Shown here piece by piece: positions 1-49,350 of a stretch of 64,000 nucleotides of DNA. Made by a program: the position numbers and the translations under genes. Location of the stretch: the IMG/VR virus record IMGVR_UViG_3300023116_008583, positions 26,192 to 90,191 of that record; one strand, 5' to 3'. The DNA is from a virus. Each line of letters starts with the position of its first letter. Position 1 is the first letter of the stretch. A model generated the notes under the pieces. That model ran no database searches, was not told where the DNA came from, and saw only the letters and a program-made list of their open reading frames with translations.

Positions 1-2
1 CT

Positions 3-755
3 GTTAAGTTTGGTACGGGAGAAGAATCCTTATCAAGCACAGAAGAGTTTGACTACTCAGAATTTGATGATGTAGACCCAGGATCAACCAAGACAACTGA
101 AGTTTTTGAGATTCTGAAGAATGTTGTTGAGTGTGGAGTTACCGCGGCTGCGATTCTTACTGCCAGGGGTCCCGAGGCTAGGCAGGGTATTAAAGATTTC
201 CTCTCAAAACTAAACGTGAACTTACAAGTCATCGATACTGTAAACACTTCTTCTCCGGCGGCCAAAGCTGCTAAATTTAGAGGCTATGCAAAACAGTTCA
301 ATCCTTCGACAATGCACTTCTATGAAGATTCAGACCCTAACAGAGCAGCTGTTGAAAACATGGTTAGAAGCTCGAAAGATTTTGAAGGTATTGACGTATT
401 CATTCACAACGTCAAGAAAGGTGAGAAGCAAGACTCGGGTCATGTCTTGGCTACGTATGAAGCTCCTCCTGAACCGAAAAATCCAATGGTGAAGGAAGCA
501 AGAGAGAAAACAGTTAATCTCATGCTTGAAGCGCTCACAGACACAGACGTTCGTCGTATTGAGGGCATAGCAAGAAGAGAGATTAGAGACTTTTTAAGGC
601 AAAACCTCGAGAAAAAAGTAATGAGTTTTGTGCAAAAAGAACTCAAGGGAAGAGACAACGAAAAGATAATCAGAGATATCGCAGCTAAAGTAATTGTTGA
701 TCTCTATCGTGCGCTCTGGGTCAAACGATCTTTTTGGGAACAAGATCTAAAATAG
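3..755 (+). CDS. HAD-like phage protein with C-terminal helical domain (5' partial)
   Basis: Frame is open from position 3, upstream of the 216 start in the track; ILTARG and FYEDS resemble HAD motifs II and IV. Confidence 0.55.
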   Translation, partial: VKFGTGEESLSSTEEFDYSEFDDVDPGSTKTTEVFEILKNVVECGVTAAAILTARGPEARQGIKDFLSKLNVNLQVIDTVNTSSPAAKAAKFRGYAKQFNPSTMHFYEDSDPNRAAVENMVRSSKDFEGIDVFIHNVKKGEKQDSGHVLATYEAPPEPKNPMVKEAREKTVNLMLEALTDTDVRRIEGIARREIRDFLRQNLEKKVMSFVQKELKGRDNEKIIRDIAAKVIVDLYRALWVKRSFWEQDLK

Positions 756-756
756 T

Positions 757-785
757 TTGAACAATCTGATAACATGATGTAGTAT
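757..785 (+). promoter_or_regulatory. sigma70-like promoter
   Basis: TTGAAC-N17-TAGTAT followed by AGGAG RBS and ATG 815. Confidence 0.5.
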
Positions 786-814
786 TTCTTATGCTTTCAT
801 AGGAGATAAACAGC

Positions 815-1798
815 ATGCCTCAAAACCCCAATCTTGAACCTGTTACTTTGCCCATGCCTCTTCGGTTTGAAGAGAAGCCGGAAACTGAATTTGTTAACGA
901 TCTTGATGCACTGCGTGTTGAGCTTGTTGACAGTCCTACTGGCGAGCAAATCCGCAATGTCGCATACCGTTATGTAAAAGCTACCTGGGCTGATTCCCCC
1001 GAAGAAACTGACCCCTTGAATGCCACTCAGCGCGAGCTTTCTGAGACTCTTGAAGATGTCATGCAGTTTCGCGCTCTTCCTGCTGGAATGGAAGCAATGT
1101 CCTTCACATTCCTCATTGGTGGAATCGATCTCCAGACCGTTACTCACTTGATCCGACATCGAGCCGGCACTTTTGCTGCTCAATGCACCGGTGATCGCTG
1201 GCAATCACATAGTCGTGCTTTGGTCCCAGCTGCTGTTCAAAACAGTCCTGAAATCTATGATCGCTGGAAGGACCACGTTGAAGCAGGTAAGCAGCTTTAC
1301 GCAGATATGATCGATACCAGGGAGATTAGTATTATGGATGCCCGGACCATTCTGCCACGTGCCATCGAAACCTTTTACTATGCTCGATTTAATCTGAAAG
1401 ACCTGATCGGTTTCATTCGGCAGCGATGTGATAAGCAAATTCAGCCCGCAGCAGATAATCTGATGGCTGCTAAGATGGCACTTGAGGTTTGCAAGGTTAT
1501 CCCAGAGGCAGCAACTGTTATCGGAACTAAGACTCTGACAGGTCCCGCCATGCACTACGTGCGTAATCTTCGAGCCGGAACCGGAACGAACCTTTATTGG
1601 CCCGACGCTGATACTGACGCTAAGATTGAATACCATCCGAATGATACGATCTATCAGGCTGAAAGAGATGATGTTAACGGTACTAACCCGCCTGAAGATG
1701 AAACAGGTGAAAATAGCAAATTCCGCCAACATTGGAACTCACTGCTAGCACAGATCAATGACATTGAAGTGGAATATCGAGATCGAATGGGTCGATAA
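815..1798 (+). CDS. thyX: Divergent flavin-dependent thymidylate synthase (ThyX-like)
   Basis: HLIRHRAGTFAAQCTGDR (RHRx7S motif with S replaced by C), DARTILP, FIRQR...IQ. Confidence 0.8.
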   Translation: MPQNPNLEPVTLPMPLRFEEKPETEFVNDLDALRVELVDSPTGEQIRNVAYRYVKATWADSPEETDPLNATQRELSETLEDVMQFRALPAGMEAMSFTFLIGGIDLQTVTHLIRHRAGTFAAQCTGDRWQSHSRALVPAAVQNSPEIYDRWKDHVEAGKQLYADMIDTREISIMDARTILPRAIETFYYARFNLKDLIGFIRQRCDKQIQPAADNLMAAKMALEVCKVIPEAATVIGTKTLTGPAMHYVRNLRAGTGTNLYWPDADTDAKIEYHPNDTIYQAERDDVNGTNPPEDETGENSKFRQHWNSLLAQINDIEVEYRDRMGR

Positions 1799-1799
1799 A

Positions 1800-2072
1800 G
1801 TGCCGTTTTCAAATAAAAACACGTCAAGAAGGCGAGAGCTGATTTATAGTTCAATCGATCTACAGCTAAGCTTTTACCAAGCAAATGCAGTTCTGTTGTC
1901 AAACAAAGAAAAAGAAATGAGCGAACAAGAATTTCTTATTTGGGAACAGTACTTACACCCAATTGCAAAATCAGACGAGTTTTTATATCGCGATATAGTT
2001 GAATTCGGTGCTCAGCTACCTGATGTTGGACATGCTTTAAGAGAAAGACTTAAGAAAACATCTTTGTCGTAG
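1800..2072 (+). CDS. hypothetical protein
   Basis: ORF packed directly after thyX; GTG 1800 is the likely start. Confidence 0.55.
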   Translation: MPFSNKNTSRRRELIYSSIDLQLSFYQANAVLLSNKEKEMSEQEFLIWEQYLHPIAKSDEFLYRDIVEFGAQLPDVGHALRERLKKTSLS

Positions 2073-2082
2073 GAAATTAAAT

Positions 2083-2298
2083 TTGAGACTTCGAGAACTA
2101 GATCTTCACGGTTTTGATCATGACTGGGCTAGAAAAATGGTTATTTCTTGGTCGAATCAAAACTTTCCGCCCTACAAGATAATCACAGGAAACTCAGCAC
2201 AGATGCAAAAAATAGTGAGAGAAGTCCTCGGAAAAAAATACAATATTGAATATGAAAGCTATCATAATTTAGGAGCGCTCATTGTTACCCCCAGATAA
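2083..2298 (+). CDS. Smr-domain-like small protein
   Basis: LDLHG and IITGNS motifs. Confidence 0.65.
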   Translation: MRLRELDLHGFDHDWARKMVISWSNQNFPPYKIITGNSAQMQKIVREVLGKKYNIEYESYHNLGALIVTPR

Positions 2299-2446
2299 TC
2301 TAAATCCAGAAATCTTAAGAGTTATGTTAATGGCTGCTATTATAGAGCTAGAGGAAACTAAAAGAAAGAATTCTTTATACTCTGTGCTTATACCCTTTAT
2401 GTTTACAGTAGGCCTAGGCGTAGGCTTCTACATTGGAATTTCATAA
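2282..2446 (+). CDS. small membrane protein (not in ORF track)
   Basis: TTG start after AGGAG; 54 aa with hydrophobic C-terminus VLIPFMFTVGLGVGFYIGIS; fills the gap between neighbours. Confidence 0.5.
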   Translation: MLPPDNLNPEILRVMLMAAIIELEETKRKNSLYSVLIPFMFTVGLGVGFYIGIS

Positions 2447-2459
2447 TTTTGGAGAAAAA

Positions 2460-2897
2460 ATGAAAGTTTATATCGCATCACCTTTTTTCAATCCTAAGCA
2501 AGTTGATCAAGTCGAGTTTATGAAGAATGCTTTGACTGCAACTGGTCATGAGTATTTTAGTCCAAAGGATTTTTTCGTTCTCAAACCAAATGCAACTCAA
2601 GAAGATCGTCAACGCATCTTTGATGTGAACTGCGAAAAGATTCAGTGGGCTGATTTTGTTCTTTGCAATACTGAGGCAAAAGATCTCGGTACTATTTGGG
2701 AAGCAGGATATGCTTATGGCATCAATAAGCCTGTTGTTTTCTTTGCAGAAGGTCTCCCGGATGGAAAGTTCAATGTGATGCTTAGTGAAGCAGGACAATC
2801 TGTTAATACGACCAGAGATCAGCTTGTCGATTATCTAGACCGTGTAAATGAATCTGGAGAGCTTATAATTGAACAGTACACGGGGTTCACGCAGTAA
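2460..2897 (+). CDS. nucleoside 2-deoxyribosyltransferase / MilB-RCL-like nucleotide N-glycosidase
   Basis: KVYIASPFF, DLGTIWEAGYA (catalytic Glu), FNVML; GGAG RBS before ATG 2460. Confidence 0.85.
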   Translation: MKVYIASPFFNPKQVDQVEFMKNALTATGHEYFSPKDFFVLKPNATQEDRQRIFDVNCEKIQWADFVLCNTEAKDLGTIWEAGYAYGINKPVVFFAEGLPDGKFNVMLSEAGQSVNTTRDQLVDYLDRVNESGELIIEQYTGFTQ

Positions 2898-2899
2898 GC

Positions 2900-3223
2900 A
2901 TGAAACACGACATCATTACTGAAGAAAATGCGGATAGATTTAAAGGACAGACTCAAATGCCTAATTTGATCCTGTACCCTATTAAGAAAATTGATGACAA
3001 TATTTTTGAAGTAGTGAAAAAGGAAACAATGGTTTTTTGGGGAAACAAAGAAGGCAATAGTATCAAGTCTTCTAATGTGTCTCTGAAATCCATTGGAAAG
3101 TTTGACGGCGAGTTGAGTGAGGCTTTACAAGTTTTAAAATCAACGCTTCCACCGTCTCAGGCCTTCCTAATACACGTGGAAGGAAATAATATTAGCAGGG
3201 CAATGATTCCCCTGAGAAAGTAA
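2900..3223 (+). CDS. hypothetical protein
   Basis: ORF in operon-like packing. Confidence 0.6.
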   Translation: MKHDIITEENADRFKGQTQMPNLILYPIKKIDDNIFEVVKKETMVFWGNKEGNSIKSSNVSLKSIGKFDGELSEALQVLKSTLPPSQAFLIHVEGNNISRAMIPLRK

Positions 3224-3231
3224 GAAATTTT

Positions 3232-3585
3232 ATGAATGTCAGCGAAACAAAAAGCGCTTTAATTGAAGCACATGAACAACTTTGTTCGTTTGCGAAGTCT
3301 CTTCATGTCTTAGGTTTTAAAGATGATGATTATTTTGATTTCGAATTTGAGTGGATCCAGATGTGTGTAGGTTTGTGCGAAATCTATTCCACCAGCACAG
3401 ACGAGTTTGTAAAAAATCGAGCACTAAAGAAGATCAATTCGATCATCGGCAATGAAGATTCAGATAATCAACTTTCTTTTGATTTCGCTACATCTGCTAA
3501 GTCTAATCCGATTAAAGCAGTTCGTGCAACTAAAGAAAACACCATGCCTTTTGATTTTGAGAGCGTAAATTTCATTGACGACTAA
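3232..3585 (+). CDS. hypothetical protein
   Basis: ORF in operon-like packing. Confidence 0.6.
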   Translation: MNVSETKSALIEAHEQLCSFAKSLHVLGFKDDDYFDFEFEWIQMCVGLCEIYSTSTDEFVKNRALKKINSIIGNEDSDNQLSFDFATSAKSNPIKAVRATKENTMPFDFESVNFIDD

Positions 3586-3775
3586 CGAAAGAAAGCCTAT
3601 TTTGGAAGATGAGAGCATTCTTTGGCCCGGAACAAAGATCGTGGTTAAAGAAACCAAGGAGCAAGGAATAATCTTGCACTCTCTCAGATACGGTGAAACT
3701 TATTCCGTTCAAACACCCTCAGGTAACGTTTTAACTCTTAAGAAAACAGATATGGAGATCATGTCATGCGAGTAA
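3575..3775 (+). CDS. small SH3/KOW-like protein
   Basis: PGTKIVVK...G...YSV beta-barrel pattern. Confidence 0.45.
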   Translation: MTTNERKPILEDESILWPGTKIVVKETKEQGIILHSLRYGETYSVQTPSGNVLTLKKTDMEIMSCE

Positions 3776-4737
3776 TGATTACAGGTGAAGAAGGATTTAT
3801 CGCAAAGAATCTACCTGCCTCTTTTGATGCTCTTGGGCACGAGTTTGTTCCGTTTTTGAACAACAAGAATTTGGTGTGCCTTGATACGGGCGAACCTTGT
3901 GTGTATAGAAACACAGAAGATGACTGGGCTAGAGAGTTATCTGCCAACGAAATTGATTTAGTAGTGCACAATGCTGCGGTTGTGGGAACTGATGTTGTTG
4001 CCCTTAACAGTTCTGAGTCTACGCAATCTAATGTGACAGGAACATACAATATTTGTAGAGCTGCAAAAAAATTGAATATTCCAGTTTGCTATATCGGAAC
4101 TACAGTGATTTACGATACAGCTGCATATCAAAGAAACGTCATTCACGAAACGTCAGCGAGATTTCCAAGAACTCTTTATGGAATTCAAAAAAGAGCATCT
4201 GAAGATATCGTGATGTCAGTTTGCAAGGACTATAATATCGTGAGGCCTCTGTTTGCTTACGGAGGTGTCGGCGACATGAACAGCCTAATATCGAAGACTT
4301 TTTATGCTGCTACTAAGGGTGTAGAACAAATAGATATGTTTCTTGACCCAGCTAAAGTCAAGGATTACATGCATGTTGAAGATTTCTGCGATGGAGTTGC
4401 ACTAGCGTGTCACAACCAGGCATGGGGCACTAGTTTTAATATCGCTGCAGAAAACCCCTATGATACTCGAGAAATCGTAAGGGTGATGGAAAGAGTTTCA
4501 AAATTAGATTTGATGCATAAGATAAAATGGCATCCCGAAACTGACTATCTTGGGAATCACAGACTGTCTTCAGAAAAGTTTAAGTTAGCGTTTAACTGGA
4601 AACCTAAGTATACCCTCAAGTCAGGAATTCAAGCAGCTTGGAATTCAATCTCAGCTTCTGAAGATACAAGCTATGATCCTCTTAAATACCTGAACGAAGC
4701 AAAAGAAAAAGGTGTAGATCTAACTCAATTTTACTAG
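3766..4737 (+). CDS. NAD-dependent epimerase/dehydratase (extended SDR)
   Basis: ITGEEGFIA Rossmann loop, HNAA, YGIQK (YxxxK), DYMHVED. Confidence 0.9.
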   Translation: MRVMITGEEGFIAKNLPASFDALGHEFVPFLNNKNLVCLDTGEPCVYRNTEDDWARELSANEIDLVVHNAAVVGTDVVALNSSESTQSNVTGTYNICRAAKKLNIPVCYIGTTVIYDTAAYQRNVIHETSARFPRTLYGIQKRASEDIVMSVCKDYNIVRPLFAYGGVGDMNSLISKTFYAATKGVEQIDMFLDPAKVKDYMHVEDFCDGVALACHNQAWGTSFNIAAENPYDTREIVRVMERVSKLDLMHKIKWHPETDYLGNHRLSSEKFKLAFNWKPKYTLKSGIQAAWNSISASEDTSYDPLKYLNEAKEKGVDLTQFY

Positions 4738-4749
4738 AGTAGAAATAAA

Positions 4750-5910
4750 TTGTCAAAAGAGCTTCCCGATAATGTAATTCCTTTTCCTTTGGAAAAAGTA
4801 AATCCTCCAAAAAAGGAAATGTTTTATCATGACATCATTAAGACAAAAACTGCGTCGGAAATGTCTGATGAAGAGCTAGTTTTTTGTCTTCTCAACACTC
4901 CAATTTCTTCTCTTGGCGACGCATACGATGAAAAATTTTGGTCTAGAAGAATTTCCTTGCTGATCAAAGTAGGTGTTTCGCTAGATCACCCAGATATCGT
5001 TGATGTTTTTGATAACGTAGAGCCTGAAGATGAAGTTCAAGCAGAAAAGCATCGCTTTGATATCTGTGTTTCTAGAGGGAATAAAATAGTAACGATCTGT
5101 GAGCTCAAATGTCTCTCAGAAATCTCTGAAAACCAGCTTGAAAAATATAGCAAAAAGCTTGAGACCAGGAAGTCCAGTTCAGCCCCTAGATATTTGATCT
5201 CTTTGTTTGACCCGAACTATGATCAAGTACCTAATCAATGGAAAGATATATCACTCTGTTATTTTGCAGAAGCGTTTAGAGAGATCTCGGAAGTCTTAGT
5301 TCGAAATCCTGCTATCGCGAATGACTTTTTAAACTGTCATGATTTTTTAATTCTTGTTGATGAGCTTGCATATAGATTTGACACAGACATGGATCCTTTT
5401 GACAACGACTCTGCAGATTTGACCAGAATGAAAGACATAGCGCTTAGGACTGACTTTTTTAAGCCCTTAGACAGGATCGTCCAGCAAGTATGCGCATCTG
5501 CAGCTTGCAAACTGCTTGATAAAAACAACCAAGATTTCTTTCTCCAAACAGGAAATACTCGGGGTAACAATTACTTCAATATCTTTACAAACGTGGAGGG
5601 AGTTGAAGTGGGAGTGCAGTTTCAAAATGGTGCATTAAAACTGTATAGAAACAGTCAAAAAGATACCCCAGAATTAAATGAAGTCCTGAGCAGAATTGCA
5701 AATTTCATATCGAAGTCAGAAAGATCATTCTCGTCAGATAAAGGTAAAGGTTTTAGATCTATCCGGCTAAACGATCTAAAGAACAAGTGTGATGCCTGGA
5801 CAGTCAATGGGAAAAAGCAGATAATAAAAACTTGCTTTGAAGGAATTGTTTTACTCAATTCTATCACATGTAAAAACAAGATCTTTAAGGTAGAATCATT
5901 ACATGATTAA
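4750..5910 (+). CDS. PD-(D/E)xK nuclease superfamily protein
   Basis: RFDI...ICELK...ENQLEKY. Confidence 0.7.
   Translation: MSKELPDNVIPFPLEKVNPPKKEMFYHDIIKTKTASEMSDEELVFCLLNTPISSLGDAYDEKFWSRRISLLIKVGVSLDHPDIVDVFDNVEPEDEVQAEKHRFDICVSRGNKIVTICELKCLSEISENQLEKYSKKLETRKSSSAPRYLISLFDPNYDQVPNQWKDISLCYFAEAFREISEVLVRNPAIANDFLNCHDFLILVDELAYRFDTDMDPFDNDSADLTRMKDIALRTDFFKPLDRIVQQVCASAACKLLDKNNQDFFLQTGNTRGNNYFNIFTNVEGVEVGVQFQNGALKLYRNSQKDTPELNEVLSRIANFISKSERSFSSDKGKGFRSIRLNDLKNKCDAWTVNGKKQIIKTCFEGIVLLNSITCKNKIFKVESLHD
5868..5896 (+). promoter_or_regulatory. sigma70-like promoter, probably leaderless
   Basis: ATGTAA-N17-TAGAAT, 6 nt before ATG 5903. Confidence 0.5.
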
Positions 5911-7543
5911 AACAGAAGACTGGATCGATTACTTTCCTCACGAAAAACCCAGGCCTGTGCAAGAAGATGCCATCAACAGGATCTTGAATTCGTTTTTATC
6001 CTCTGATAAAAAGTTTTTCATAGCTGAAATGGGTACGGGCTGCGGAAAGTCGGCAATTGGCGTCACAGTTGCTAGATATCTTAACTATGTTGTCAACGAA
6101 GACATTGAAGGATTTGGAAGAGGAGCGTATTTTGTTACTACCCAAAAGATTCTCCAGGACCAGTACGTAAAAGATTTCGGGGGCTATGGCCCTATGAGAA
6201 GCATAAAATCTGCGTCAAATTACCAGTGCGTCTTTCACAAGAACAATAGTTGTGCAGAATCTCAGGCGATGCTAAGGTCTGTTGAGAAAGATACACCTTT
6301 CTTTAAGACCTGCTCAGGACACTGCACTTATAGGAAAAATAAAGATGACTTCTTGAAGTCCCCAGAGTCAGTCGTTAACTTTCCGTATTTTTTAACTGAA
6401 GCAACTTATAATGGAAAAATTACTCCTCGAAATTTTCTTGTACTTGATGAGTCTCATAATGCTGAGCAGGAGCTCTCAAGATTTATTGAGATTGCAATTT
6501 CTGAGAGATTTGTAAAAAGCACTCTAAAGATGAACTGGCTGGGAGAAAAGAGTCAGCTTAACTCTTTCTTGTGGGTTAGAGATAAATACTTTCCAAAAGT
6601 CAAAGATCGCTTAAGTCACGTTGAAGGAATACTTAAAAAGTTTGAAGGGCTTAAAGAGAAGCTTGAAGAATTTGCTGGTTTTGCCAGACAACATGATATG
6701 CTAAAATCTCATGTTGATAGACTGACTACTTTTATTAGACACTACGATAAAGAGAACTGGGTCTGTGAATATGACTCAGGGTATGGTCGAAAGCTAGCAA
6801 AGGTTGTGTTCAAGCCTGTAGATGTGTCAGATTTTGCCAAGGACTATTTGCTTAGGCTTGGGCACAGAACTCTTTTGATGTCTGCTACTATCGTCAATCA
6901 CAAGTCTTTTTGTAGGTCTTTGGGAATCTCCTTGAGTGAAACTGAGTTTATCTCAACTCCTTCTCCTTTTCCCAAAGAAGGCCGGCCAATAGTTGAGCTT
7001 CTCGTTGGCAAGATGAATGCTAAAGAGATAGACAATACCCTTCCGGTGCTAGCACAAACCGTAGAAGAGATCTTGAAAATGCATCCTGATGAAAAGGGTA
7101 TCATTCACTGCCACACTTTTAAGATTGCAAAATATCTTTGGGAAAATGTAGGTGAAGGAAATGATAGGCTCCTTTTGCACGATACAGACACGAGAGATGA
7201 AGTTCTTCAGCAGCACATGAGAGCAGAAGAACCCACAGTCCTACTCAGTCCTTCAATGCAGGAAGGTGTAGATCTTAGGGGTGATTATTCGAGATTCCAG
7301 ATTATTTGTAAAGTACCTTTTCCGTATCTCGGAGACAAGGTGGTAAAAAAGCGGATGTCCAAGTGGCCTGAGTGGTATTCGACTCAGACAGCAAAAACTG
7401 TGATACAGGCAGTGGGACGCAGTGTAAGATCTGAGGACGATCATGCAGTTACATATATCTTAGACGAAGGCTGGCGATACTTTTACAATCGTCACAAGGA
7501 ATACTTCCCGCAAGACTTCAGAGAGTGTTTGCAAAGGTACTAA
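5903..7543 (+). CDS. DinG/YoaA/XPD-family SF2 helicase
   Basis: Q motif PRPVQ, GTGCGKS, four-Cys (Fe-S) region, DESH, SAT, EGVD, QAVGRSVR. Confidence 0.9.
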   Translation: MIKTEDWIDYFPHEKPRPVQEDAINRILNSFLSSDKKFFIAEMGTGCGKSAIGVTVARYLNYVVNEDIEGFGRGAYFVTTQKILQDQYVKDFGGYGPMRSIKSASNYQCVFHKNNSCAESQAMLRSVEKDTPFFKTCSGHCTYRKNKDDFLKSPESVVNFPYFLTEATYNGKITPRNFLVLDESHNAEQELSRFIEIAISERFVKSTLKMNWLGEKSQLNSFLWVRDKYFPKVKDRLSHVEGILKKFEGLKEKLEEFAGFARQHDMLKSHVDRLTTFIRHYDKENWVCEYDSGYGRKLAKVVFKPVDVSDFAKDYLLRLGHRTLLMSATIVNHKSFCRSLGISLSETEFISTPSPFPKEGRPIVELLVGKMNAKEIDNTLPVLAQTVEEILKMHPDEKGIIHCHTFKIAKYLWENVGEGNDRLLLHDTDTRDEVLQQHMRAEEPTVLLSPSMQEGVDLRGDYSRFQIICKVPFPYLGDKVVKKRMSKWPEWYSTQTAKTVIQAVGRSVRSEDDHAVTYILDEGWRYFYNRHKEYFPQDFRECLQRY

Positions 7544-8227: not shown

Positions 8228-9034
8228 ATGATTACTTTTATTTTAATACTTCTTGTACTTATTGGGATTCATGAGCTTGGCCATCTGGTTGCCGGGCATC
8301 TGCTTAAAGTGCAGCCTAAAGTTTTCTCTATCGGGTTCGGTCCTGCGCTTCTAAAATGGAAGTGGAAGGGCACGATTTGGAAACTCAGCCTGTTCCCCTT
8401 GGGCGGATACGTTAGGTTTAAAGGTGATCAAGATTTAGATTCAACAGACCCGACTACTTTTTGGGGATGTGCTCCGTGGCGCAGAGCTGCAATCGCTTTC
8501 GCAGGCCCAGCAGTCAATCTGATCTTTCCGTTCTTTCTGTACTTTTTCTACGCGTGGGGTCATGAGGTCCCTCGAGGTCCAAATGATATTCCTCCTCCGC
8601 CCGGAGCGCAAGTCGCAACGATAGATGCTCCTTGGGCTGCTAATATCTCGTGGAGAATCACGACAAACATGTACGGCGCAATGCACGAGGGTGTGAAAGA
8701 GATGGTAACAAAGGCACCCACACAAGACACCTTGGGTGGCCCAGTGATGATCTACGAGATGTCAAAGGCGGCAGAAGAAACGACTGTAAAACAAAAAGAT
8801 ATGGGACACGTGATCGATCTTTTAGCAATGCTTAGTATCAATCTCGGTTTCTTAAATTTACTTCCTATACCCGCGCTTGATGGAAGCCACATCGTGCTAT
8901 CTGGTGTAGAAACTGTGACCAGAAAAAAGATATCATATAAAACTCGCATGAGACTTACAATGGTGGGCGTTGTTATGCTGCTCTCAATCATGGCCTTCGC
9001 GATCTACTCAGATATCGCTAGATACTTTCTGTAG
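8228..9034 (+). CDS. site-2 protease (M50, RseP-like, no PDZ)
   Basis: HELGH, FSIGFG, PLGGYV, AGPAVN, NLLPIPALDG, TM segments. Confidence 0.9.
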   Translation: MITFILILLVLIGIHELGHLVAGHLLKVQPKVFSIGFGPALLKWKWKGTIWKLSLFPLGGYVRFKGDQDLDSTDPTTFWGCAPWRRAAIAFAGPAVNLIFPFFLYFFYAWGHEVPRGPNDIPPPPGAQVATIDAPWAANISWRITTNMYGAMHEGVKEMVTKAPTQDTLGGPVMIYEMSKAAEETTVKQKDMGHVIDLLAMLSINLGFLNLLPIPALDGSHIVLSGVETVTRKKISYKTRMRLTMVGVVMLLSIMAFAIYSDIARYFL

Positions 9035-38442: not shown

Positions 38443-39282
38443 ATGAAAGTACTCATTCTCGATGGTCATAATCTCATTCACCGTGCACGAGCGGGCTACA
38501 ACCGCGGTGCACATTCAATCACGTACATGTTCTTCAGGTCTCTCCGACCGCTGATTGAAAAGATGTCGCCTGACAAGGTGTATTTTGTGCTCGAAGGTAG
38601 CCCAAAGAAAAGAATCCAGCTAGACGGCGACTATAAAGCAAATCGAAAGATCGATGAGTCTGATCCAAAGTGGGAAACCATGCAGGACTTTTTCAGGCAA
38701 AAAGATGAGTGCGTAGAGTTGCTCTATCAGGCGTTTCCTTTTACTATTGTCCGCCATCCCGATTTTGAAGCAGACGACATCATTGCTCACTACGCAAGGT
38801 TGCACAAGGAAGATGACGTCGTGATCGCCTCAGGTGATTCTGATTTCATTCAGCTGCTAACAGATGAGAACCCACAGATCAAGCTTTATCATCCAATTAA
38901 AAAAGATTTTGTTACACCTCCTGACTATGACTACTTAGAGTGGAAGGCTATTCGTGGCGATGCTACAGACAATGTGCCTGGCATTCCTCGACATGGCGAT
39001 AAGACTGCGGAAAAGATTGTGAGAGATCCTGAACTCTTTGAGAAAAAGCTTGAGGATCCTGAGTGGGAAGCACAGTTTTTGAGAAACTTAAGCTTAATTA
39101 GAATTGATGCACTTACTCAAACCGAAATCGACGGTATTCAAGTCGTTGAACCTGACCTCAACACTCAAGTTATTAAAGAAGCGTTTGAAGGTTGGGAGTT
39201 TGGTTCTGTTTTAAAAGAAAAACCCTGGAATAAGTTTATCAAGACTTTCGAGGATATCTTAGAAGGAGAAAGCTTTGCCTGA
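38443..39282 (+). CDS. 5'-3' exonuclease / flap endonuclease
   Basis: LDGHN, YKANR, EADD, SGDSD, GDATDNVPGI. Confidence 0.93.
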   Translation: MKVLILDGHNLIHRARAGYNRGAHSITYMFFRSLRPLIEKMSPDKVYFVLEGSPKKRIQLDGDYKANRKIDESDPKWETMQDFFRQKDECVELLYQAFPFTIVRHPDFEADDIIAHYARLHKEDDVVIASGDSDFIQLLTDENPQIKLYHPIKKDFVTPPDYDYLEWKAIRGDATDNVPGIPRHGDKTAEKIVRDPELFEKKLEDPEWEAQFLRNLSLIRIDALTQTEIDGIQVVEPDLNTQVIKEAFEGWEFGSVLKEKPWNKFIKTFEDILEGESFA

Positions 39283-40078
39283 AGGACCAGAATGTAGAAG
39301 AATGGCATTGCAGCTTGCTGAGCAAGTTTCTAACAAGACAATAAAGTCAATAGAAATACTCACAGGCAGGTATACGAAAAAACCGATAGAGAATATTGAG
39401 AAGTTTGAAGACGACTTTCCCATAAAGATCCAAGGTGCCGGAGTCCACGGAAAGTTCATCTTTTTCCTGCTCGATAATCAGTGGAGCATCTGGAATACTC
39501 TAGGTATGACTGGATCTTGGTCTGCTGAGCAGAAAAAGCACAGCAGAGTAAAGCTTTGTTTGAATGAAGGCGATTTATATTTTAACGACCAGCGTAATTT
39601 TGGAACTCTAAAGATCGTTCAAGGCAAAGATCCTCTCGTTGAGAAGCTTAACTCGTTAGGTCCAGATCTATTAGCTGAGGAGTGCCCGAACAGGTTGTTC
39701 GCCGAGCGCCTGGCAAAAAAGCACAATAAAACTATCGCTGAAGCAATAATGGATCAATCCGTCCTGTCTGGGGTTGGAAATTACGTCAAGGCTGAAGCTC
39801 TTTATCTTGCAAAGATCAGCCCAAACAGAGTCGTCAGCGATCTAACTTCAGATGAGATAGTGCTTTTGAATAAGACTACCAGATCAGTGCTGGTGAATTC
39901 CTTTGAGTCTGGTGGTGCAACTATTAAATCTTATGCCGATTTTTACGGTGATGTCGGCACTGCCACTGATAGATTTTTGGTCTACGGTAAAAAGTTTGAT
40001 CCTAACGGAAATCCTGTCGTAAGAGAAAAAACTGCTGACGGTCGCACGACACACTGGGTTCCAAAAGTTCAAAATTAG
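39275..40078 (+). CDS. Fpg/Nei DNA glycosylase-AP lyase (zincless finger)
   Basis: N-terminal PEGPE, GK, LGMTG, GVGNY, GRTTHW with no Cys finger. Confidence 0.92.
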   Translation: MPEGPECRRMALQLAEQVSNKTIKSIEILTGRYTKKPIENIEKFEDDFPIKIQGAGVHGKFIFFLLDNQWSIWNTLGMTGSWSAEQKKHSRVKLCLNEGDLYFNDQRNFGTLKIVQGKDPLVEKLNSLGPDLLAEECPNRLFAERLAKKHNKTIAEAIMDQSVLSGVGNYVKAEALYLAKISPNRVVSDLTSDEIVLLNKTTRSVLVNSFESGGATIKSYADFYGDVGTATDRFLVYGKKFDPNGNPVVREKTADGRTTHWVPKVQN

Positions 40079-40338: not shown

Positions 40339-42871
<2,533 letters not shown>

Positions 42872-45624: not shown

Positions 45625-46659
45625 GTGCATGTGAACAACTTGTACGAAGTACTTGGTATAGATAAAACCGCCTCAGATAAAGACATTAAAAAAGCTTACA
45701 GAAATCTTGCGAAGAAGCTGCATCCAGATACATCAGATGATCCTAATGCCGAAGAAAAATTCAAGGAAATAAGCGCTGCTTACTCTGTTCTTAGCGATCC
45801 TCAAAAGAGAAATAATTACGACAAGTACGGCACAGCTGACCCACCTACTACAGGATTCAATCAAGGCCCAATGCCTAACATTGATGACTTTTTTGGTGGG
45901 TTCGGAGGTAATTTTGAAGACTTGTTTGGCAGGAATTCTAAAAGAAGCTCTGGGCCTCAAAGAGGCACAGACATTAAAGCCCAGGTCGTCATTACACTAG
46001 AACAGGCATCAAATGGCGGAGAAGTTACGATCAACTATGACAAGATAGCTAAGTGCGGTACTTGCAATGGGAAAGGATCTGAGACGGGTGATGTTAAGGT
46101 ATGCGGAGCTTGCAATGGTGCAGGAAGCACAACGCACCAGCAAGGATTCTTTACTTTTACCTCTTCTTGTCAAAAGTGTGACGGCCAAGGAAAAGCTGTA
46201 ATAGATCCGTGCATATCCTGCAACGGTAAAGGCGTCTCAAGAAAACATAAGAACGTAAGCGTAAAAATTCCCGCAGGAATCTCAGATGGAGCAGTCGTCA
46301 GATTAAAAGGAATGGGTAATGAAACCAAGTATGGTTATCCAGGAAATTTGCTCCTCGTAGTTCATGTTGCCAAAAATGAAAACTTTGAAAGAATTGGAAA
46401 TGATGTTCATGCTGAGTTGTGGCTAAGCGTAAGCCAAGCTATGTTAGGTGATATCGTAAAAATAAAAACACTATCAGGCGAAACTAAAAACTTAAATGTT
46501 CCTGCAGGAACACAGCATGAAGACAAGTTAAAAATCAAAGGCGCCGGAATCAAAGACGGAGATCATGTCGCCATCGCCAAAATTAAAATACCGCAATACT
46601 TGACACCCAAGGAGAAGGACTTAATTGAAGAGTTCCAAAAAATTAGAAAAGATCAATGA
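45625..46659 (+). CDS. dnaJ: DnaJ chaperone
   Basis: HPD J-domain, G/F region, four CxxCxGxG repeats. Confidence 0.96.
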
Positions 46660-47077
46660 CTGGCATCCTCCAAAATCTCCCTATGGTTTGATTCAAGAAG
46701 AATTATATGAAGATCCGTGGAAGATACTCGTTGCGTGTGTTTTTTGTAATTTGACAAGGAGGTTTACAGCTGAGCCCATCATGCGAGAGTTCTTTGATCT
46801 GTATCCTACACCAAATGATGCGATGAATGCGAACTCTTCGCGCTTGGAAGAGATGCTCAAGCCTATCGGGCTTAGCGCCAGAAGAGCAAAGACACTAATC
46901 AGAATGTCTAAAGAATACTTGGAAAAAGACTGGAAAGAGCCTATAGAGCTTTACGGTATTGGCAAGTATGGAAATGATGCGTGGAAGATATTTTGTACAC
47001 CTGACTGGAAAAATGTACAGCCAAAGGATCACGCTTTAAATTGGTATCACGATTGGCTAATTGCCAATTATGCATAA
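46625..47077 (+). CDS. MBD4-like HhH mismatch DNA glycosylase
   Basis: [11 protein letters not shown]...DPW...[17 protein letters not shown]. Confidence 0.85.
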
Positions 47078-47879: not shown

Positions 47880-48380
47880 ATGAACTCGATCTGGGTGGGC
47901 TTTTATTCACCTCCTTTGCGCAATTGGCGCCATAAGATCGTTGCATGGTGGACTAAGAGTCCTCTTGTTCATTCTGAGCTCATACTTCCTGGCGGAATCA
48001 CCGCCGGAATTTGTCCAGAAGGTGAAGGTGTTGTGAGGATGGTCCAAGAGGACCGATCTGAACACGAGTACTGGAAAAAGGTTGAGCTTAAAGTTGATGA
48101 TCACCAGCTAAAAAATATATTCAGATTCTATGAGCAAACAGCCGGACAGCGATATGACTGGATCGGGATGTTAATATCACAATTCGTGCCGTACATGATC
48201 AAGCATGATCGGAAGTGGTACTGCTCTCAATGGATCGCACATGCTCTTATCACAGCAGGCATTTTCCCGGTGACATACGAAAAGATCTCTCCTGGTCGCC
48301 TCTATGAGATGGTTTTGAATGTAGCAGCGCAACAGTCACTTGATGAAGATTTGTGTAGCTCTGAGAGCAGCCAAGTATAA
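47880..48380 (+). CDS. permuted papain-like (NlpC/P60) enzyme
   Basis: HSEL...YDWIG...WYCSQW (His before Cys). Confidence 0.7.
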   Translation: MNSIWVGFYSPPLRNWRHKIVAWWTKSPLVHSELILPGGITAGICPEGEGVVRMVQEDRSEHEYWKKVELKVDDHQLKNIFRFYEQTAGQRYDWIGMLISQFVPYMIKHDRKWYCSQWIAHALITAGIFPVTYEKISPGRLYEMVLNVAAQQSLDEDLCSSESSQV

Positions 48381-48381
48381 T
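48353..48381 (+). promoter_or_regulatory. sigma70-like promoter
   Basis: GTGTAG-N17-TATAAT, then AGGAGG. Confidence 0.6.
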
Positions 48382-48402
48382 CAATACAAATCAGGAGGAA
48401 TT

Positions 48403-49350
48403 ATGCGTTACGGCTATGCTTGCATCAACATGACTTTGCAAAAGAATCATAAGATCACTACCAATCGGTCTATGATCAAGCGTACTTTTGCTGCCAAAGG
48501 AATAGATTATGCCTCAGAGCTGGCTGTAAAAAACACTGAGGATCTTGTAAAAGTTATTCAATGGAACAATCGCAACGGATTTAAGCTGTTTCGGATGTCT
48601 TCCAAGCTATTCCCTTGGGCTTCTGAGTATCGCCTAGAAGACTTGCCTGACTTTGCCGAGATCAGGTCTAATCTTGAGGCGGCAGGCAAAGAAGCTATGG
48701 ATAACGGACAGCGTCTTTCTTTTCACCCGGGCCCATTCAATATTCTCACGTCTCCTCACGAGCGGGTTGTCCAGTCTTCTTACACAGACTTACGAATCCA
48801 CGGTGAAATAATGGATTTGATGGGAATGCCCAGAAATCACTGGGCCAAGATCAACATTCATATTGGTGCTTCATATGGAGATCACCAGTCAGCAACTGAT
48901 CGATGGTGCAAAAACTTTGAAGGCTTACCTGATTCTGTCAAGTCAAGACTGACAGTAGAAAATGATGACAAAGAATCGCTGTATGGTGTGTCTCACTTAC
49001 ACGAGCTGGTTTATGCTCGAACAGGTGTGCCGATCGTATTTGATTACCATCACCATCGTTTTGTCGACGGTGGACTTTCTGAAAGAGATGCACTTCATCT
49101 TGCTGTGTCCACGTGGCCTGATGGTATCAAGCCCACTACACACTATTCAGACTCAAGATCTATTGAAATGAACAATGACAAGATTAAACCGCAGGCTCAC
49201 TCTAACTACATCTTTAACTTTGTCGACACCCATGATCTAGATATTGACATTATGTTCGAGGCGAAAGCAAAAGAATTGGCGGTCATAAACTATACGGAAA
49301 ATCTATGCCAAGATGACGACGTTAAATTCTGTTATACTTTAGACAAATAG
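48403..49350 (+). CDS. uvsE: UV DNA damage endonuclease
   Basis: GYAC, FRMSS, HPG, ENDD, FDYHHH, HYS, EAKAKE. Confidence 0.93.
   Translation: MRYGYACINMTLQKNHKITTNRSMIKRTFAAKGIDYASELAVKNTEDLVKVIQWNNRNGFKLFRMSSKLFPWASEYRLEDLPDFAEIRSNLEAAGKEAMDNGQRLSFHPGPFNILTSPHERVVQSSYTDLRIHGEIMDLMGMPRNHWAKINIHIGASYGDHQSATDRWCKNFEGLPDSVKSRLTVENDDKESLYGVSHLHELVYARTGVPIVFDYHHHRFVDGGLSERDALHLAVSTWPDGIKPTTHYSDSRSIEMNNDKIKPQAHSNYIFNFVDTHDLDIDIMFEAKAKELAVINYTENLCQDDDVKFCYTLDK

Follow-up and report, generated by a model that had tools for sequence, protein, structure and literature searches.

A conserved, almost exclusively viral relative of ThyX whose active site is rewired

We analysed the final 64 kb of a 90-kb viral record (IMG/VR IMGVR_UViG_3300023116_008583; this whole 64-kb stretch is called the window). 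At an estimated completeness of 29%, the record would come from a jumbo phage of some 300 kb. A gene near the start of the window encodes a protein, here called the variant. It represents a real, conserved and uncharacterised lineage of ThyX-fold proteins in which the active site has been rewired. The variant is probably not a plain thymidylate synthase. From its fold, conservation, paralogy and gene linkage, we favour, with confidence about evenly balanced, the reading that it would bind a flavin and a nucleotide and serve as a flavoenzyme with a new function in a pathway of pyrimidine modification or pool editing, not as an ordinary synthase of thymidine monophosphate (dTMP).

The gene product has the ThyX fold

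The sequence of the window was found in salt-marsh and aquatic viral metagenomes, and its genes lie nearly all on one strand. The elements of the variant gene are as follows (window positions).

801-805, + strand: Shine-Dalgarno sequence AGGAG, 9 nt upstream of the ATG, read from the sequence
815-1798, + strand: ThyX-like variant gene (protein P0001), ATG at 815, 327 codons plus stop
815-889, + strand: N-terminal arm, residues 1-25, conserved, without counterpart in canonical ThyX alignments
890-1519, + strand: ThyX-fold core, about residues 26-235, from Pfam and structure matches
1076-1093, + strand: L88-P89...E93 in place of canonical H-x-x-P-F-E, from hhalign and HMMER alignments
1142-1198, + strand: T110-H111-L-I-R114-H115-R116...A121-A122-Q-C124-T125-G-D127-R128, with RHR retained and the S-x-R-Y loop replaced by C-T-G-D-R
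1337-1357, + strand: D175-A-R177-x-x-L-P181, the equivalent of ThyX R147 with LP, retained in the alignments
1424-1444, + strand: R204-x-D206-x-Q208-I-Q210, with R174, D176 and Q180 retained and H178 replaced by Gln
1520-1795, + strand: residues 236-327, C-terminal extension specific to the family; NLYWPD and HP.D..Y motifs conserved, helix at the end

The variant passes the Pfam Thy1 model (PF02511; 68.8 bits against a threshold of 24.8, E 6.9e-19, residues 47-231) and lies under the NCBIfam thyX equivalog cut-off (TIGR02170; 52.6 versus 87.9 bits). An AlphaFold (AF2) model built with 42 relatives had a mean predicted local distance difference test (pLDDT) score of 94.7, and its top PDB matches were all ThyX or PolB (Foldseek E 8e-11). 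In structural alignment, the model matched Mycobacterium tuberculosis ThyX (3gwc) with a Z score of 16.8 and a root-mean-square deviation of 3.1 Å over 214 residues. The fold is common to the variant and canonical ThyX (Thermotoga maritima TM0449, M. tuberculosis Rv2754c), with Z scores of 15-17 over 200-215 aligned residues at an identity of about 19%. Both have RHR, R147-LP, R174-x-D, N163, Q180 and E58 or their equivalents, and the variant has extra N-terminal and ~90-residue C-terminal segments. The structural alignments to ThyX begin at model residues 22-33; the first ~25 and last ~90 residues are outside the shared core, yet they are conserved and confidently modelled. The N-terminal arm is modelled as extended, without secondary structure, at a pLDDT of about 93. 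A C-terminal extension had already been noticed in a sequence-only reading of this gene, and it is real: the protein continues past the Thy1 match and is ordered in the model.

Metatranscriptome contigs from one sponge study and two salt-marsh studies overlap most of positions 818-1792, and two of them start at 818-828, at the gene start. This coverage hints weakly at transcription; such libraries can contain DNA.

Flavin- and nucleotide-side residues are retained and folate-side residues lost

Active-site residues were compared by HMMER profile alignment to M. tuberculosis ThyX and by hhalign to the canonical ThyX of related phages. Residues are numbered here as in T. maritima ThyX, and RHR, Q103, S105, R107 and Y108 in the profile alignment agree with the M. 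tuberculosis numbering. Retained are E58 (E93 in the variant), R78-H79-R80 (R114-H115-R116), R147 and LP (R177, L180-P181), N163 (N193), R174 (R204), D176 (D206) and Q180 (Q210). Substituted are H53 (L88), Q75 (H111), N85 (A121), E86 (A122) and H178 (Q208), and the T. maritima loop S88-G-R90-Y91 is replaced by C124-T125-G126-D127-R128.

The strings on which the sequence-only reading was built are all present in the protein (THLIRHRAGTFAAQCTGDR, residues 110-128; RALPAGME, 86-93; DARTILP, 175-181), as are the later Arg (R204) and the QIQ in place of HAQ (208-210). That reading had also described the His of HxxPFE as lacking and the Gln preceding RHR as changed to His, in agreement with the alignments, where L88 takes the place of H53 (hhalign and HMMER) and H111 that of Q75. 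Its statement that the motif Ser has become Cys was right in that a Cys sits at RHR+8, but the pairing of this Cys with the signature Ser varies by alignment. In the ungapped HMMER alignment, C124 is opposite the signature Ser (S105 of M. tuberculosis ThyX), whereas hhalign inserts one residue and places T125 opposite the Ser and C124 opposite Ile/Leu87, with low column confidence. Under either alignment S-x-R-Y is not preserved, and S, R and Y are never kept together.

In ThyX, S88 and Y91 are strictly conserved and critical, according to a 2025 structural paper (PMC11940539). H53, Y91 and N85 form a hydrogen-bond network in which H53 stacks on folate or reduced flavin, and mutation of Y91 slows flavin oxidation about 1000-fold (PMC11940539). 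Given these roles of H53, Y91, N85 and S88, the substituted residues make up a single functional unit, on the side of folate and methylene transfer. To judge from the alignments, the variant has kept the residues that grip flavin and nucleotide while losing the folate-side network, and the retained R114, R116, R177 and R204 fit binding of flavin adenine dinucleotide (FAD) and a nucleotide. The sequence-only reading had proposed a flavoenzyme of the ThyX family with altered substrate or chemistry. This proposal is partly supported, by the fold, the coherent change of the active site and the gene content of related phages; substrate or chemistry may differ from those of ThyX, and the Cys may not be essential.

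The variant family is conserved and almost only viral

In the 121 closest relatives (at least 53% identity), the motif residues vary little or not at all. In a broader alignment of 17 sequences, with identity down to 33%, P89, E93, T110, H111, R114, H115, R116, A122, C124, T125, D127 and R128 are invariant, and so are D175-R177, R204, D206 and Q210. Residues were further counted in 81 family representatives (clusters at 50% identity): R114 is present in 81/81, R204 in 80/81, R177 in 79/81, R116 in 76/81, E93 in 73/81, L88 in 70/81, D127 in 61/81, C124 in 59/81 and H115 in 33/81. The His of RHR is thus less conserved than the Cys, and the second Arg of RHR is missing in some family members. From these alignments we infer that the replacement residues are under strong purifying selection.

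In a phylogeny built with FastTree only, and with long branches, the clade of the variant (46 rows, support 100) is separate from canonical ThyX. A sister clade, likewise separate from canonical ThyX, reads HQLVRxRxGVTFSQQC(T/S)GD and has the QC(T/S)GD motif in common.

A single-sequence search gave 433 representative clusters at 50% identity, and more than 1,276 relatives of the variant were found among clusters at 90% identity. The relatives are often marine and occur on contigs of up to 296 kb. In 185,579 species genomes, three contigs matched, all from metagenome assemblies and all with phage-like neighbours. These results indicate a large family that is nearly confined to viruses. Geobacillus phage GR1 is the one cultured carrier that was found; its protein has 49% identity to the variant and is annotated as an FAD-dependent thymidylate synthase (UDY80709.1). 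In a tblastn search of the variant against phages, GR1 was the sole close relative, and the other matches were all canonical ThyX at 21-31% identity. A megablast search of window positions 1-6000 against the phage collection gave no match, and we found no paper that describes the variant family.

With several catalytic residues missing, the variant might be thought a decaying or non-catalytic ThyX relic. The relatives number more than 1,000, the replacement motifs are invariant, the frame is full-length, the fold is predicted with high confidence, and synteny is conserved across lineages that are only 45-50% identical; all this speaks against decay and makes the explanation highly improbable.

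The variant is a paralog of canonical ThyX

Canonical ThyX and the variant occur together in 22/55 related viral contigs. Two Thy1-family genes are present in four of the five largest (200-237 kb, 61-87% complete): a canonical copy of 129-167 bits and 227-255 residues, and the variant, which scores about 66-70 bits and has about 330 residues. ThyA was found in none of these five. In three canonical copies taken from these large contigs, H-x-S-T-L-E-H, RHRTWSYNEISRRY and HAQ or GAQ are intact. Among the 50 further contigs, 18 have both genes, several of them only 4-7 kb apart. The canonical ThyX of these phages is of two types, RHR...S-R-R-Y and KHR...S-A-R-Y. This co-occurrence indicates that the variant is a paralog, not the sole ThyX-family gene of the phage group.

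The variant is linked to genes of nucleotide metabolism

Neighbours were counted from clustered open reading frames of 82 loci carrying the variant. The commonest is a nucleoside 2-deoxyribosyltransferase (74/82 loci), which GR1 and three distant contigs have as well. In 73 of the loci there is a MazG/dimeric-dUTPase-like domain fused to an NT5C-type HAD 5'-deoxynucleotidase, and in 72 a small MazG-like pyrophosphatase; glycosylases of the Fpg/Nei and HhH-GPD types come next, along with the DnaE-type polymerase and thymidine kinase. The genes of the record that matter here are listed below, including a source of deoxyuridine monophosphate (dUMP), a deaminase of deoxycytidine monophosphate (dCMP) or cytidine.

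Record positions 24693-25700 (L003:6694-7698): MazG-NT5C fusion, about 0.5-1.5 kb upstream of the window start
2433-2897, + strand: nucleoside 2-deoxyribosyltransferase (PF05014, E 2e-16; best PDB match 6evs, E 8e-14)
13661-14572, + strand: P-loop kinase fused to a small ThyA-like domain, 303 residues, no Pfam match, model pLDDT 92.6
20608-21180, + strand: thymidine kinase (PF00265, E 1.9e-38), as the sequence-only reading had stated
22589-23080, + strand: dCMP/cytidine deaminase (PF00383, E 8e-20), source of dUMP

In GR1 and three distant contigs (45-50% identical), the gene order is deoxyribosyltransferase, YfbR-type HD 5'-deoxynucleotidase, variant and polymerase. The YfbR-type enzyme is not homologous to the HAD domain, for which it substitutes in these genomes. 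Replacement by an unrelated nucleotidase of equal activity is good evidence of a functional tie between the nucleotidase step and the variant. In two distant loci, the deoxyribosyltransferase is fused to a P-loop kinase.

A small ThyA-like protein accompanies the variant

The model of the kinase/ThyA-like fusion has as its best PDB matches the dCMP hydroxylase AfhB of phage HY126 (9iqu, 9iqc). Further matches are T4 dCMP hydroxymethylase, ThyA and MilA, all partial, with template modelling (TM) scores of 0.36-0.48; a PDB sequence search with the protein gave no significant match. ThyA landmarks are present in the fusion, namely C235 (at the site of the nucleophile), R255-S-S-D258, D266 where ThyA has N177 (the dCMP-type switch) and S-A-H300. 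On the strength of the model, the fusion is a candidate cytosine-C5-modifying enzyme joined to its own kinase. It is present in 5/5 large contigs, and the variant is found in 61 of the 78 searchable kinase/ThyA-like records, the other 17 being mostly short fragments.

Stand-alone ThyA-like homologues directly follow the variant in GR1 (151 residues) and in two contigs, L094 (197 residues) and L096 (188 residues). Compared with the ThyA-like domain of the fusion by hhalign, they score a probability of 93-95%, and the L096 copy matches Pfam ThyA with 23.5 bits. Two of them are annotated as hypothetical proteins:

GR1, L004:20969-21421: small ThyA-like protein UDY80710.1
L094:8992-9582: small ThyA-like protein

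These two copies have Asn at the D169 position and Asp at N177, whereas the marine copies keep Asp at 169. According to a 2026 paper, Asn at D169 is a marker of flavin-dependent 5-hydroxy-dCMP synthases (PMC13326640), and with Asp at N177 the two copies match the signature published for these enzymes. Such enzymes, AfhB and RB69 gp48, show the thymidylate-synthase fold recruited for flavin/O2 chemistry at the pyrimidine C5 (PMC13326640); they resemble the ThyA-like neighbour of the variant, not the variant itself. A complex prediction for the variant and the kinase/ThyA-like protein scored 0.00 and, run without controls, is evidence neither way.

That the ThyA-like gene comes right after the variant in GR1, L094 and L096, and co-occurs with it elsewhere, would also suit a variant that makes no nucleotide product of its own and serves as the flavin-handling partner, a reductase or carrier, of an adjacent AfhB-type flavin-dependent dCMP 5-hydroxylase. 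The best match of the fusion model is indeed AfhB, and the GR1 and L094 copies have the Asn at the D169 position. In addition, 5-hydroxy-dCMP synthases bind flavin only loosely (PMC13326640), ThyX enzymes show oxidase activity with reduced nicotinamide adenine dinucleotide phosphate (PMC11940539), and the residues lost from the variant are those of the folate side. A mere reductase, however, would not need the near-universal nucleotide-binding R177 and R204; GR1 already has an NfsB-type flavin reductase beside the variant, and the marine ThyA-like copies lack the Asn marker. We therefore consider a partner role of this kind improbable.

Thymidylate synthesis or a new function

The variant could instead be a genuine dTMP synthase of a mechanistically rewired second class, in which D127, C124 or T125, H111 and R128 replace Y91, S88, Q75 and R90 and canonical ThyX is a redundant later acquisition. 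This explanation, which is the one already given by annotation pipelines, is a serious contender, although we think it somewhat unlikely. It accords with the Thy1 match, the ThyX fold and the retained equivalents of R78, R80, R147, R174, N163, D176 and Q180, and with the hhalign result, in which a Thr stands at the Ser position and is followed by Gly as in T. maritima. The complete genome of GR1, which has a dUTPase, contains no thymidylate-synthase-like gene other than the variant, and the variant is likewise the sole such gene found in the present record and in a 235-kb relative, G001. Together with the dUMP supplied by the phage dCMP deaminase, the gene set (dCTPase-like MazG, dCMP-type ThyA-like enzyme, kinase, deaminase and thymidine kinase) parallels that of T4 if the variant takes the part of Td. 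On the other side stand the canonical ThyX of two types in 22/55 contigs, including 4/5 of the most complete; the loss of H53, N85 and Y91, where mutation of Y91 costs ~1000-fold in flavin oxidation (PMC11940539); the equivalog score below cut-off; and the absence of the second RHR Arg from some members.

Several observations weigh against a new function. The phage dCMP deaminase makes dUMP, and a thymidylate synthase is therefore normally needed. No canonical ThyX was found in the 90-kb record (29% complete), where the site that canonical ThyX occupies in 85%-identity relatives holds other genes, or in G001, its closest large relative (70% complete). The complete GR1 genome has the variant only, with neither ThyA nor canonical ThyX. 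In GR1, G001 and this record, the variant could thus be the dTMP synthase. The 55 contigs in which paralogy was counted were picked for carrying the variant; all are fragments and many are closely related. C124 occurs in only 59/81 representatives and is therefore not a universal nucleophile. Moreover, T. maritima ThyX mutants S88A and S88C have solved structures (3g4a, 3g4c), and Koehn and colleagues reportedly found in 2009 that both keep activity. The equivalent of R174, which contacts the uracil O4 in ThyX, is invariant, which argues against a switch to cytosine. Finally, the conserved neighbour module could be ordinary deoxynucleoside salvage.

A plain switch to dCMP as substrate, comparable to the Asn-to-Asp change in ThyA, was also considered and is disfavoured by the invariant R174 equivalent.

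We nonetheless favour a new function because a canonical paralog occurs in many of the same genomes, the residue replacement is coherent, the family is restricted to viruses, and the variant is tightly linked to ThyA-like, nucleotidase and deoxyribosyltransferase genes.

A possible mechanism

In the mechanism that we propose for a neofunctionalised variant, the retained arginines would hold the flavin and a 4-oxo-pyrimidine nucleotide. The network of His53, Asn85 and Tyr91, possibly with Ser88, by which canonical ThyX gates folate binding and drives methylene transfer, has been replaced, and the reaction would take place at the C5 position of a pyrimidine deoxynucleotide. The enzyme would belong to a conserved module for pool editing and modification, made up of MazG-like nucleoside triphosphate pyrophosphatases, a 5'-deoxynucleotidase, a nucleoside deoxyribosyltransferase and a small dCMP-type ThyA-like enzyme, often kinase-fused, encoded beside DnaE. 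With R174, R147 and R78 in place, the nucleotide would be expected to be a 4-oxo-pyrimidine and to stack on the flavin, as in ThyX.

Because the folate-side network is lost and glycosylation genes are linked, a hydroxyl-bearing product can be guessed. It might be 5-hydroxymethyl, with the methylene transferred and left unreduced, or 5-hydroxy, formed with O2, and be glycosylated later; this guess is speculative and more likely wrong than right by a wide measure. A broader and still tentative scenario, which we rate as rather unlikely in its entirety, is that a virus-specific branch of ThyX changed its chemistry, so that flavin and, in most members, the new Cys/Asp pair would install a C5 hydroxymethyl or hydroxyl group, together with the ThyA-like partner, feeding a glycosylated and undescribed base in abundant marine and salt-marsh jumbo phages and in GR1.

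Several observations touch on sugars and modification. In a metagenomic protein of 551 residues (P0132), sequence motifs and a language-model look-up suggest a GT2-like domain fused to the variant; this fusion is a lead only and could also be a gene-calling artefact. Two other architectures were seen: P0263 has two ThyX-like domains, and the C-terminal part of the P0158 fusion, which by eye resembles an HNH homing endonuclease, was not used as a functional link. The variant cluster of GR1 includes a glycosyltransferase, and an NfsB-type flavin reductase (UDY80708.1), an amidoligase and a gamma-glutamylcyclotransferase are also nearby. Given the signature of its ThyA-like protein and these nearby enzymes, GR1 DNA may carry a modified base.

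Within the replication and nucleotide region of the window, a sugar-nucleotide supply set is encoded at 3766-4737, 15024-15950, 32395-32988 and 42089-42871 (all +). In that order, it consists of two NDP-sugar epimerases/dehydratases dependent on nicotinamide adenine dinucleotide, a weak cytidylyl/adenylyltransferase-like match, below the Pfam threshold, and a eukaryote-type phosphomannomutase. A PHROGs scan of ten further unknown window proteins gave one weak adenylyl-/cytidylyltransferase match only.

Other genes of the phage

The phage carries a broad auxiliary nucleotide metabolism; an enzyme of the GMP reductase/IMP dehydrogenase family is encoded at 18537-19565 (+; E 1e-108). The DnaE-type DNA polymerase III alpha, with PHP, NTPase, finger and HhH domains, lies at 9551-13480 (+), and this type of polymerase is syntenic with the variant in marine contigs, GR1 and metagenome-assembled contigs. 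Repair-type genes encode an Fpg/Nei glycosylase (39275-40078), a short HhH-GPD-like protein (46625-47077) and a UvdE ultraviolet endonuclease (48340-49350), all on the + strand; in related phages, Fpg/Nei and HhH-GPD genes are found just upstream of the variant module.

A chaperone and protease set comprises a ClpB-like AAA+ protein (35422-38019), GroEL (40525-42123) and DnaJ (45625-46659), all on the + strand, and ClpP (record positions 18776-19381). An M50 peptidase is encoded at 8228-9034 and a superoxide-dismutase-like protein at 23440-24132. A weak match to the tubulin/FtsZ GTPase domain (31 bits, just below the Pfam threshold) at 25917-26948 (+) may represent a PhuZ-like phage tubulin.

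Related systems and implications

PolB of Streptomyces is a neofunctionalised ThyX paralog that methylates C5 of uridine monophosphate or dUMP in polyoxin synthesis and coexists with a housekeeping ThyX (PMC5954106). The likeness to the variant that was seen is in the fold (4p5a, 4p5b; Z 16.0). Bacillus phage SP-15, which has hypermodified thymine, encodes one ordinary and one divergent Thy1 protein, and the divergent gp130 has been hypothesised to be a hydroxymethyl-dUMP synthase (PMC5977210). As here, this is a second Thy1 protein in a jumbo phage, but it has 413 residues and is without RHR; its membership in the variant family was ruled out by an hhalign probability of 0.4%. Phage T4 has two paralogs of the ThyA fold, the dTMP synthase Td and the dCMP hydroxymethylase gp42, together with a dCTPase-like enzyme, a deaminase, a kinase and a thymidine kinase. 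This comparison is an analogy only, the fold being that of ThyA in T4 and that of ThyX here.

ThyX is regarded as a single-function family in which PolB is the one known neofunctionalised paralog, and the variant adds to it a large virus-restricted sister family. The cultured carrier GR1 makes the question of its function directly testable. Should the variant prove to be a genuine thymidylate synthase, this would mean that wholesale replacement of the residues regarded as essential in ThyX is possible. If its product is not dTMP, the variant would represent a second route, beside the enzymes of the ThyA fold, to modified pyrimidines in phage DNA, with a bearing on the evasion of restriction and CRISPR and on new flavin chemistry.

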